This document shows positions 37,945 through 63,104 of a stretch of 64,000 nucleotides of DNA, piece by piece (the first letter of the stretch is position 1; each line of letters begins with the position of its first letter). The notes beneath the pieces were generated by a model that saw only the letters and a list, made by a program, of their open reading frames with translations, was not told the origin of the DNA and did no database searches. Source of the stretch: Patescibacteria group bacterium (GTDB lineage Bacteria; Patescibacteriota; Minisyncoccia; Phycocordibacterales; Phycocordibacteraceae); assembly GCA_013815345.1 (NCBI GenBank), contig JACDGK010000002.1:99399-163398 (forward strand). Direction: 5' to 3'. Made by a program: the position numbers and the translations under genes.

Positions 37945-38028
37945 GTATGCAGAGAGCTCTTTTCATCAGGGCCTCCCCCATCAACCACTGCGGCTCACTA
38001 CGTGACCCGCTCATCTGGAGATAACATC

Positions 38029-38592
38029 ATGAAGAGTCTGATTTTGCGTGTTTGCGCGCTTCTGGCCACCTCGGCGAGCCTCACGGCTTGCATGACCGTC
38101 AACGCCTACAAAGGCGTTCCGATGGGAAACTACACTCGGGGGTCGGAAGTTCTGACGCCCGCGAAGATCGCCGACCAAAACGGAAGGGTTCTCCCACGGT
38201 GCAAACTGTGGGCGAAGGAAACCACTCCCTCTCCCGGCAAGCTCGGCGCCGCTATGGCCTTCAATCACGCCCAAGCGGGATTCATCGGCGGAGCCGGTGG
38301 CTATGCTTCCAATGTCGCCATCGTCGGTGCCGCTCTGAATCCTCTGTCGATAGCGGGTGTGGGTGTCGCCAATGCGATCAATGCCGGAGCACAGTCCTAC
38401 GTGTCCGGCAAAGAAAGCGTCTACGCTCAACGCTTCAGTGGGGCGAAGTACTGCCTCATCATGGACATCAACGGCACCCATGCCGTTCCGCCGTCGGAAG
38501 CGAAGCGGATCACCAATGGTCAACAGGCGCCCACGTCCTACGGGGCGCCGGCCGAATGGGGCTCGTCCGCCGTCGTCCCTCCGCCGTCCTAA
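38029..38592 (+). CDS. Predicted lipoprotein with a Gly/Ala-rich hydrophobic core
   Basis: GGAG SD; MKSLILRVCALLATSASLTAC ends in a lipobox; GC-rich codon usage. Confidence 0.7.
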   Translation: MKSLILRVCALLATSASLTACMTVNAYKGVPMGNYTRGSEVLTPAKIADQNGRVLPRCKLWAKETTPSPGKLGAAMAFNHAQAGFIGGAGGYASNVAIVGAALNPLSIAGVGVANAINAGAQSYVSGKESVYAQRFSGAKYCLIMDINGTHAVPPSEAKRITNGQQAPTSYGAPAEWGSSAVVPPPS

Positions 38593-38620
38593 CTCTTCAC
38601 TGAGTAAGGACCAAAACACC

Positions 38621-59309: not shown

Positions 59310-60044
59310 ATGAAGAAAGAAATTCCGGTGAAATCAAAACCCACCTACCCTATGCGCATCAATCAATACTTAGCGATGCATAACCACTCCACGAGGCGAG
59401 GAGGGGATGAGCTCGTTACGAAACACAAAGTATGGATAAACGGCAGAATAGCAGTGCTAGGTGACAAGGTTGCGGCAACGGACAAAGTCGAAGTGAGAAA
59501 TCACACAGCGAAAACATACGTCTACTATGCGTACAACAAAGCAAGAGGTACCGTGTCGCACTCTGCCGAGAAAGGTGCTCACGATATTGGGGATCGTATT
59601 GAGCTGGAGCTTGGCCTTACCGGCGTCTTCCCTATCGGGCGACTCGACAAAGATTCGCATGGACTCATCATCCTCACCAATGACGGTCGTATTACTGATC
59701 GATTGCTAAACCCCGATCGAGAGCACGACAAGGAATATGTCGTGAAGACTCGCGAAAAGGTTCGCGCGAGTTTTAAAAAGAACATGGAGGCGGGAGTGGA
59801 CATTGAGGGATATCTTACTAAACCATGTACGATAAAAATCATCGACGATCACACGTTCTCGATTATATTGAGCGAAGGCAAAAAGCACCAAATACGACGA
59901 ATGGTCGTGGCACTTCATAATGAAGTGGTTGATTTGAAACGTACTCGGGTTCTTACTATAGAGCTCGATGAAATAAAACCAGGCAAGCATCGCGAAATAA
60001 AAGGCGCTGAGCTTGAGACATTTCTCAAAAAGCTCGGACTTTAG
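59310..60044 (+). CDS. RsuA/RluB/RluF-family pseudouridine synthase
   Basis: S4 domain, GRLDKDS, EGKKHQIRRM. Start 59310 follows TATAGT. Confidence 0.93.
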   Translation: MKKEIPVKSKPTYPMRINQYLAMHNHSTRRGGDELVTKHKVWINGRIAVLGDKVAATDKVEVRNHTAKTYVYYAYNKARGTVSHSAEKGAHDIGDRIELELGLTGVFPIGRLDKDSHGLIILTNDGRITDRLLNPDREHDKEYVVKTREKVRASFKKNMEAGVDIEGYLTKPCTIKIIDDHTFSIILSEGKKHQIRRMVVALHNEVVDLKRTRVLTIELDEIKPGKHREIKGAELETFLKKLGL

Positions 60045-60146
60045 CTCACCTCTTTATTTCATTCTCCTCTTCACCCTTCCTTCACTTTCTTTATGTATAT
60101 TGACCATAGATTTACTAAATTGTCTCCAAATATATAATCGAAGATT

Positions 60147-60479
60147 ATGAAAAAAATATTACTATCCGCCGTGCTTGTTCTGAGCCTCCCTGCCTCAGCG
60201 TTTGCTGCAACCTACGACTATGTAAATACTAGCGGAGCGCTTCAGTCCGTAGTCGCTTCTACTCCTGAACAAGCATTGATTACTGCTCCCAATATCGCTT
60301 TGCATAGTGGGGTTATTCTCGATACGGGCACTGTTGTAGTCGCCCCAACCGGTACCATGTCTCTCTATGAGTATGTTGCTATTGATGGCAATCTCAGCAC
60401 CGTTCAGGCCAACAGTCCTACACAAGCATTCGCCCTCGCCACAAATATCGCTCTACATAGCGGCGTAATGGCTCTTTAG
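60147..60479 (+). CDS. Small secreted protein with an internal duplication
   Basis: Signal peptide ending AFA; two copies of YxYV..G.L..V.A.SP.QA...A.NIALHSGV. Confidence 0.8.
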   Translation: MKKILLSAVLVLSLPASAFAATYDYVNTSGALQSVVASTPEQALITAPNIALHSGVILDTGTVVVAPTGTMSLYEYVAIDGNLSTVQANSPTQAFALATNIALHSGVMAL

Positions 60480-60739
60480 TTAATAAGCCCTAAGGCCATC
60501 GTTAAAGATGGAAATAGAAAACGGGAAAGACTCCCGCGAGCACCGCAACAATTTGGATTGCGATGATACAGAGCGCTTGCGTTCGTTTCAGTGACAACCA
60601 CCGAATAGCAAACACTCCGATCATCAGTGCTTCTAAAACTAAGCTGTATTTAAAAACGAACCCCCTGATCCAATGCCGACAAAGTGGCAAAGGTTCAGAG
60701 GTACAAAGACTGAAACGCCAAGAGTCTAATTGGCTAGAA

Positions 60740-61161
60740 TCAACGGGAAACGACCTGATAGTCGGCGTCCCACTCGAACGGGTTCGCAACGGAGCTCGCC
60801 CCCACGTCCCAGCGTGGCTGGAGTCCCAGCCGGCGTCCACCGCCCAGAGCACTTCGTTCTGGTCGCGGATATAGGCGATGTTCGCATAGCCGTTGACGAG
60901 CAGAGGTCCGGACTGGCCATTGCCCTGCTGCTTCAATTGCTCCCAGAATTGGCCGACGGTCGTTTCTGTCGTCATTTCGCCGGTTTCGGTCATGATAGGG
61001 CCGTCGACCGATGCCTTCTTCAGCTTGGAGATCTTCAGGGTTTCGGCGCGGGTGGCGTCCTCGATCTTGCCGAGGAAATTGCTCTTGAAGTTGACGCCGA
61101 TCCCATAGATCTTCACGCCGTCGGTGGTCTTTCCTTCATAGAATCTGAATACGACTCTCAA
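60740..61161 (-). pseudogene. Putative DGR target gene remnant (5'-truncated, frameshift at 60812-60813)
   Basis: Restoring one base gives ...LWAVDAGWDSSHxWDVGASSVANPFEWDADYQVVSR-stop, rich in NNC codons; GC-rich island. Confidence 0.65.
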
Positions 61162-61182
61162 CTAATATGCCTTTTGAGACTA

Positions 61183-61210
61183 GTTATCGACGCGCCTTGA
61201 GCGCGATAAC
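61183..61210 (-). terminator. Hairpin downstream of tRNA-Gln
   Basis: GTTATCGACGCGC-CTTGA-GCGCGATAAC. Confidence 0.55.
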
Positions 61211-61966
61211 CTAGCACACGTTGGCTGGGGGAGAAGGAGTCGGACCTTCATATACACCTTCAAAGGGTGCTGTCCTACCGTTAGACGATCCCCCATTATT
61301 TACGGAAATTCCGTGAATCCACCCATGAACCTTGCGATTCAGAGAAGTGCTATTCTTCACTTTAATCCGTACTAGGCCATGATACAAGTCTCCTACTGCA
61401 TGTCTATTCGTATGCCGTTTTCCTTTCTTAAAATAAATACTCGTAATCTCCTCGACGCGCAACGTACTTTCCCACCATTTTTTGAAAAACTTGGTCTCAC
61501 GTCTTCTGTCCTGATGTATATATAACTCAAACTTTAATTCGTCTTTTCGTATATTCATTAATGTTAGCCATCGTAAAAAGATTTTCAGCATGGTTGGATC
61601 TGAATTACTGAAGACAATGCCAGTGCTCGGACTATGTTCATGCTGCTTAGAGCCTTCTCCCCAATACAGTGATATCCCCACTAACCAAAGCTCCCTATTA
61701 GAAAGAAGACCAGTTTCTTTTAACCCATTCATGTTTGCAGTGTTGACACTGGCCAGCCGAGCAGTCCGTCTTGCTAGTGCACCTTTCAAGCGAGCCTCCC
61801 GACTCTTTTGGGTTATACGTTGCTTCTGGTTTTTAGCTAACCCAATATTTTGAAGCCAAAGCGAAAGTGTCGACTTTGCTACAGGAACTTCGTCAAGAAT
61901 TTCTCTATATGTTTTACCCTCCTTTCGCAGTAATATTGCCCTCTATTTTTCGACCTCCCTTTTCAT
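61211..61966 (-). pseudogene. HTH plus LAGLIDADG-like protein with an in-frame TAG at codon 8
   Basis: MKREVEK*RAILLRKEGKTYREIL...VAKSTLSLWL is in frame with LYWGEGSK and FSNSDP. Confidence 0.7.
61222..61295 (-). tRNA. tRNA-Gln(TTG), CCA encoded
   Basis: TGGGGGA/TCCCCCA acceptor stem, G discriminator, anticodon TTG, T-loop TCCGACT. Confidence 0.93.
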
Positions 61967-62030
61967 TCAGTAAATATGGAATTCCAGAGATAAAATTCCT
62001 ATAAGTTATTTCTAAAGTAGGTATGAAGTT

Positions 62031-63104
62031 TTAATCTTGCCCGAGAAGCTCAAAGACAGCAAGCTCTAGCGGAAGCGCTGGCTCGGGTGAAAAGCGCATG
62101 CGCTCTGCGGCGTCGAGAAATACTTTTAATGTTTGGTGCGTTAGTTTTGAATCTTTCGTTTGCGCAAGCTTCTCCACTTCTGCATACGCGTCAGCTCCTA
62201 ACTCCTCAGCAATTTCTTTACGGAGCTCGGGTGCGTATCGCACAAGGAGCACGGTTCGTATCTGCTCAAGAACGAGAGAGAGATACAATGCCAAATCTAC
62301 ACTTTCGCTGCGCGTTTTTCGAATCGTACTTAACGCCATGTCTGCGTTTCCTTCCCCGAGAGCTGCGACGAGTGTTTGAATGAGTTCGTGCTTCGGCGCT
62401 CCGGTTGCACGCTCTGCTTCGGCTCGTGTAACTTTTTTATCAGAAACTGAACTCAGCACTTTCTCAAGCGTTGAAAGCGCGTCACGATAGGAACTATCCC
62501 CAAGAAGCGCAATGAGGTCGGCAGCTGAAGGTTCTATAATATACCCTTCCTTTCTTGCGACTTCACCCACGAGCTTTGCGAGCACTGCGCGAGATGGTTT
62601 CTTAAATTCATATACCTGGCAGCGGGACTGTACCGTTTCTGGAACTTTTGAGAGCTCGGTAGTGGCAAGAATGAATAATGCATGTGCCGGTGGCTCCTCT
62701 AAGGTTTTGAGAAAAGCATTCCATGCCCCCTTCGAAAGCATGTGGGCTTCGTCGAGTATATAGACCTTGTAGGGTGACTCGAAAGGCAGTGTGTAGACGT
62801 TTTCCGTAAGGGCACGAATGTCGTCGACGCTATTGTTCGACGCTGCATCTATTTCATACAGATCGCGAGAGGTGCACCCAAGTTCTTGCGCAAATATACG
62901 TGCAATGGATGTTTTACCAAGACCACGCGAGCCTGCGAAAAGATACGCATGCCCGACTTTTTTGGAAGCGATTTGATCTGCAAGCGTAGAGGTTATCTGC
63001 TCCTGTCCTATCACTTCCTTGAAGGTAGCAGGACGATAGGTGCGATAGAGAGATTGGTGGTTGCTCGGAGATGAACCACGAGATGCTTCGGAAGACGACG
63101 CCAT
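62031..63104 (-). CDS. dnaX: DNA polymerase III gamma/tau (short form)
   Basis: LYRTYRP, GSRGLGKT, EIDAAS, DEAHML, LKTLEEPP, SRC. Confidence 0.95.
   Translation of the reverse strand: MASSSEASRGSSPSNHQSLYRTYRPATFKEVIGQEQITSTLADQIASKKVGHAYLFAGSRGLGKTSIARIFAQELGCTSRDLYEIDAASNNSVDDIRALTENVYTLPFESPYKVYILDEAHMLSKGAWNAFLKTLEEPPAHALFILATTELSKVPETVQSRCQVYEFKKPSRAVLAKLVGEVARKEGYIIEPSAADLIALLGDSSYRDALSTLEKVLSSVSDKKVTRAEAERATGAPKHELIQTLVAALGEGNADMALSTIRKTRSESVDLALYLSLVLEQIRTVLLVRYAPELRKEIAEELGADAYAEVEKLAQTKDSKLTHQTLKVFLDAAERMRFSPEPALPLELAVFELLGQD

Follow-up and report, generated by a model that had tools for sequence, protein, structure and literature searches.

Why does a gene that ends like a DGR target stand here without a neighbouring template, Avd or RT, and is its repeat still being rewritten? 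The gene lies on the minus strand of the window (the whole stretch of DNA that was analysed, 64 kb in length), between the host tRNA-Gln(TTG) (61222-61295, minus strand), a neighbour outside the element, and a small gene with an rluB-like pseudouridine synthase (59310-60479). An earlier note on this DNA had described a DGR-type gene here, hidden by its ORF track. The codons that it quoted are present in the sequence as written: a CAC codon ends at 60814, two bases follow (60813-60812), TGG runs from 60811 and the stop codon occupies 60741-60739. The track does hide the region, as a 219-aa ORF (61161-60502) crosses the break in the wrong frame. HMM matches in two frames define a UVR6-class DGR target (variable protein) pseudogene at 60739-61147 (minus strand), which covers family positions ~83-213 of 215. 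We consider it probable that this 5'-truncated and frameshifted target copy is a dead relic that has lost its template, Avd and RT.

The 3' end of the gene carries the signature of DGR mutagenesis. The variable repeat spans 60744-60851 (minus strand), as defined by a match to the template-repeat HMM (60851-60744, E 6.8e-12). In a comparison with a consensus of 36-37 family templates, 12 of the 21 adenine columns are changed in the window tail, vs 3 of the 47 other conserved columns (Fisher p=1.1e-5); in the upstream coding sequence, used as a control, the counts are 1/14 adenine columns and 3/25 others. These counts support the proposal of the earlier note that the tail is a DGR variable repeat with adenine-derived codons. 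The repeat ends in a putative IMH-like 3' end that comprises the stop codon and a conserved TGATTCT tail (60733-60750, minus strand). This tail is common to L003, L006, L007, L014, L016, L081, L087, L220 and L229, and the subfamily that bears it stops directly after Ser-Arg. The best templates from other loci, aligned ungapped or with a single gap, show 10-14 non-adenine mismatches to the window repeat. A gapped template scan over all loci gave gap-ridden chance alignments and was set aside.

We searched for homologues of the in-frame part of the gene (P0001). This analysis revealed 11 proteins at 36-61% identity, and the profile built from them retrieved 3,648 clusters at 50% identity and 148 GTDB loci, 80 of which were fetched for study. 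The homologues come almost all from Patescibacteria, and the window itself looks like the genome of such a bacterium (Parcubacteria-type). Members with a full start comprise 189-281 aa (median 225, 72 genes). Searches of Pfam, NCBIfam and PDB sequences returned no family for the target, the ESM Atlas gave unnamed Minisyncoccota clusters only, and no family copy was found in viral contigs by protein or DNA pattern. The family is patchy in the relatives of the host (31 of 100 genomes). In their supplement, Wu et al. 2018 (PMC5758913) list its repeat type as UVR6, which makes the family an already known class of DGR targets; the window gene belongs to the Patescibacteria UVR6 class as judged from an alignment comparison made by eye, which carries no computed score. 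Three proteins are tandem fusions of five (P0014, 926 aa), two (P0015) and two (P0066) UVR6 domain copies, and the N-terminus of P0015 is a signal-peptide-like stretch.

A near-copy of the 3' repeat is present in 41 of the 80 fetched loci, three of which were dropped (L022 and L033, a paralogous gene copy; L060, a run of N). The remaining 38 belong to the 69 scorable loci, those with >=700 nt downstream and no N, and carry an adjacent template repeat ~330 nt past the variable repeat. Over these 38 cassettes, template and repeat differ at 663 template adenines and at 37 other positions, in ungapped matches of 88-122 nt from a scan that was lenient toward adenine mismatches. An RT ORF follows in 29 of them and an antisense Avd-like ORF is found in 30; in L016, RVT_1 matches at E 1e-23 and the Avd models, with DivGenRetAVD at E 3e-15, match below the curated cut-off. 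The other 31 scorable loci are template-less, so that orphan status is the norm for the family. In L087, a metagenome contig, the gene and adjacent template lie 330 nt apart on the minus strand, and the template mismatches its own target repeat, with a different loop length and many non-adenine differences, which suggests a swapped target or template.

The sequence downstream of the gene resembles that of the intact cassettes as well. A family hairpin with a T-tract, a putative target cruciform and/or terminator, is found at 60655-60701 (minus strand, HMM E 2.1e-6). The hairpin proper (60701-60662) begins 37 nt past the stop codon, in agreement with the ~40 nt given in the earlier note. It folds better than dinucleotide shuffles, none of 200 being as good over 91 nt (z -3.4) and 3 of 200 over 56 nt (z -2.7). 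Its core is nearly identical to that of L229 and L087 and the outer pairs are missing, with a fold energy of -8.6 kcal/mol vs -11.6 kcal/mol in the intact cassette L229. An IMH-like end with a downstream inverted repeat is thus present, and the hairpin is homologous to that of the intact cassettes. In the latter, the stop codon is followed by a pyrimidine tract, the hairpin with its T-run, a -10-like box and the template RNA. The window copy keeps this layout as far as the box, which is degraded (60646-60654, minus strand) and would be a promoter element by its likeness to the consensus. Alignments to L220, L228 and L229, intact cassettes from relatives of the host, all stop at 60646-60647. 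Among the template-less family loci the hairpin is kept in 30 of 31 and part of the leader in 8 of 31, so that the end point seen in the window is usual for stand-alone copies.

A weak pairwise likeness suggested that a decayed template leader might follow the hairpin; this was rejected, as the leader profile has no match there. The intergenic stretch 60480-60650 contains two small hairpins and a site that resembles a terminator (60537-60521); it has no Pfam, NCBIfam or Rfam family, and the DGR leader does not match it. On the minus strand of L081, past position 748, an intact target precedes the hairpin, the -10 box and an initial portion of the leader, with no template. This state suggests a cassette deletion seen one step beyond that of the window copy.

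The gene carries two lesions. The family profile matches positions 83-191 of 215 in one frame (E 1.6e-43) and positions 190-213 in a second frame (E 3.1e-6). The DNA homology to L220, the closest intact cassette, begins at 61147, ~75 nt from the tRNA-Gln(TTG). No in-frame ATG lies between this point and the tRNA, and the TTG at 61161 is not a family start codon. The first ~82 family positions and the start codon are thus missing from the window copy. The earlier note, which repaired an indel at the 3' end only, missed this truncation, and repair of the indel alone would yield no protein. With positions 1-82 absent and the frame broken at ~60813, the gene is a pseudogene.

The second lesion is a frameshifting deletion in the Trp-Trp loop (60810-60814, minus strand), which leaves 14 nt between both Trp codons, vs 12, 15 or 18 in the family, and lies beside a CAC codon derived from AAC. 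The earlier note had placed one missing base at 60812-60813; the position of the break stands, and the size is more likely 4 nt than 1 nt. This preference comes from the loop lengths in the nine nearest tree neighbours, 6 codons in 7 and 5 codons in 2, on a weakly supported tree, a quick version in which the window copy falls in no strongly supported clade. Among the 37 template loops parsed, 21 comprise 4 codons, 15 comprise 6 codons and one comprises 5 codons. When templates from the Ser-Arg-stop subfamily are aligned to the window repeat, the gap is mostly 4 nt, and with 5-codon templates it is 1 nt. Wu et al. 2018 report that 74% of indels between template and repeat adjoin AAC and suggest RT slippage, which is a possible origin of the window frameshift beside its AAC-derived codon. 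Conserved residues deviate at only 6 of 41 positions, a level also reached by 22 of 82 intact members, which speaks against heavy decay, although the end branch of the window copy is long at 0.58, vs 0.12-0.43 for its tree neighbours. A 1-nt insertion has shifted the frame within the variable repeat of another family member, at L017 (570-1071), whose genome also contains a related cassette (L036).

No machinery that could still rewrite this repeat was found in the window. RT, Avd, leader and post-template profiles derived from the family itself gave no RT (best E 0.33), Avd (0.41), template repeat (self-match only) or DGR RNA leader (0.59) in the 64 kb, as the earlier note had claimed for the RT and template. 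The locus could have reached this state as follows. The window tail would once have been rewritten by mutagenic retrohoming, in which the RT misreads template adenines and the cDNA replaces the repeat. The unit of gene and hairpin would then have been left alone, either when the template-avd-RT half was deleted or as a copy that stood by itself. A short deletion beside the AAC-derived codon, probably of 4 nt and possibly due to RT slippage, would together with the 5' deletion have ended the gene.

The main alternative is a broken target that is still written to, in which a DGR elsewhere in the genome supplies cDNA in trans to the repeat, IMH and hairpin. The earlier note had called the gene a remote, decaying target. 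The decay is borne out by the 5' cut and the frameshift; the remoteness is unproven, as no cognate template was found in the window, the JGI metagenomes or the contigs of sequencing run X1. Five pairs of loci in the family do show that a template in the same genome can match a target that it does not adjoin: L033/L110 (19 adenine mismatches, 1 other), L058/L108 (17, 1), L042/L071 (22, 4), L011/L006 (16, 4) and the decayed L069/L072 (20, 10). In addition, a genome-wide RT search that took 39 of the 42 template-less loci found a DGR-like RT elsewhere in 28 of 39 genomes, and the window copy retains the 3' tail and hairpin core. Against this, no matching template is present in the fetched 1.5-kb RT flanks in 22 of 30 target/RT-locus pairs, and a startless gene gives no product on which selection could act. 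Among the contigs of sequencing run X1 no second contig lies on the repeat at 80% likeness, a weak result since such contigs can be filtered out. The JGI metagenomes contain no cognate template either, the 8 matching stretches being family repeats or templates of other lineages. We thus regard a still-targeted gene as unlikely. For L018 and L019, the apparent separation of target and template is probably due to contig breaks.

A bolder version would have the DGR kill its own target via RT slippage at AAC, with the headless gene still rewritten in trans by a remote cassette. We find this combination distinctly improbable. If true, the pseudogene would be a selection-free recorder of raw Patescibacteria DGR mutation spectra and a silent store of repeat variants; continuing adenine variation in raw reads would make it a neutral read-out of DGR mutagenesis.

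Returning to the probable dead relic, its surroundings raise the question of how it arrived. The gene has a GC content of 59.5%, vs 47.5% for the window, a value reached by 0.5% of 400-nt windows, and a GC3 of 82%, vs a median of 46% for the long ORFs of the window. The earlier note saw a GC-rich island directly 3' of the tRNA-Gln, and the high GC and the neighbour are both real. A horizontally acquired islet that integrated at the tRNA 3' end and brought the DGR fragment along as cargo would account for this composition and for a variable site: no family gene is found at any of the tRNA-Gln(TTG) loci of 17 relatives, and the dnaX-tRNA-rluB order is shared by four relatives with differing inserts. 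However, GC lies above that of the flanks in 74 of 76 family members, by a mean of 9.9 points vs 8.3 here, so that high GC is a family trait and no evidence of an island. Only 7 of 80 family loci have a tRNA in the 1.5 kb upstream or the 3 kb downstream. The window contains no second copy of the tRNA-Gln 3' end or att-like direct repeat, and no integrase-sized ORF lies near the gene. Moreover, the ~35-nt hairpin-like stretch that follows the tRNA-Gln (61188-61221) recurs in L216 and L231 without the family gene. An islet is thus very improbable; as an arrival route it would be compatible with the relic but is unneeded, and the link of the element to the tRNA-Gln looks incidental.

Several other features of the neighbourhood were noted. 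In L231, the ~35-nt stretch follows a duplicated tRNA 3' end. The relative G002 has a DGR RT near rluB, but on the opposite flank of that gene and thus at a different site, and G428 was rejected as a close relative. A 192-aa ORF (61211-61789, minus strand) runs through the tRNA-Gln; it has no Pfam or NCBIfam match, and its homologues occupy the same place in L219, L230 and L231. The only stretch of the window that is richer in GC than the gene (38000-38620, 62.5%) contains long overlapping ORFs on both strands and is possibly another foreign gene.

The DNA of the region was also compared with sequencing runs, the best-matching of which is a soil metagenome. A 27.8-kb Logan contig from run X1, at depth 23, is identical over 59500-62500, frameshift included. 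The run may be the source of the same DNA, so that this identity is not independent support and appears to exclude an assembler slip more than to add a second observation. Runs X2-X4 gave only short unrelated pieces for the region. A search of X1, X3 and X4 with the intact cassette L016 gave no match and is uninformative, since the window's own gene was also missed. That the lesions are artefacts of assembly or consensus in a hypervariable repeat, with the real gene intact, is hardly tenable: assemblies do break at such repeats and the matching run is possibly the source, but a second assembly method gave the same sequence with no gap, joint or loose end at either lesion, and the 5' truncation lies ~290 nt outside the repeat.

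The fold of the intact protein was predicted from the homologue P0004. An AlphaFold2 model built from 82 sequences has a pLDDT of 92.8. Foldseek with this model found no match at E<=0.001, profile searches for a lectin-fold match gave nothing significant, and the best match in a wide structural search has a Z of 5.2, under the tool threshold of 8. Nearly all of the 50 matches listed for the model belong to what we take to be CLec, FGE-like or Link domains. The intact protein may thus be a small C-type-lectin-like binding domain, as this suggestive likeness of the model would predict. The predicted structure leans to a C-type-lectin-like fold for UVR6, which was left unassigned by Wu et al.

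Taken together, the feature is real and is a further, probably dead copy of a published target class, nothing new in kind. Alone it is of little weight in a class of this size. Wu et al. 2018 kept only putatively functional elements and discarded over half of their candidate DGRs as broken. Literature searches brought up no paper devoted to orphan UVR6 genes, and Paul et al. 2017, on CPR/DPANN DGRs, may already describe such orphans and the hairpins that go with them.

Among known systems, the UVR6 type as listed by Wu et al. comprises ten DGRs, and in nine of these the architecture is B3, target-template-(avd)-RT; the same authors file one member that shares the LLTNGYANIF core under 'misc' and not under UVR6. 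The window copy departs from a complete B3 cassette in that template, avd and RT are missing beside the target, which is itself 5'-truncated and frameshifted. The C-terminal motif, LWAV...W-loop-W-x-V...SV..P..W....VxSR, is the same when compared by eye, as is the cassette order with antisense avd in the homologues, and the target size of ~190-240 aa is similar. The DGR clade 2 Patescibacteria targets of Roux et al. 2021 (PMC8144416) are likewise cell-encoded and have no recognisable domain, just as the target here has no Pfam or NCBIfam match. Their method misses remote targets, as the authors state, and they anticipate that targets without a recognisable domain are new variants of the lectin fold. 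Finally, TvpA from Treponema (PDB 2y3c) superimposes on the P0004 model with a Z of 5.1 (130 residues, rmsd 3.6) and Mtd from a Bordetella phage (PDB 1yu0) with a Z of 3.8. Their identity to P0004 is 12% or less and no phage copies of the UVR6 family were found, whereas the C-terminal position of the repeat is shared by all three.
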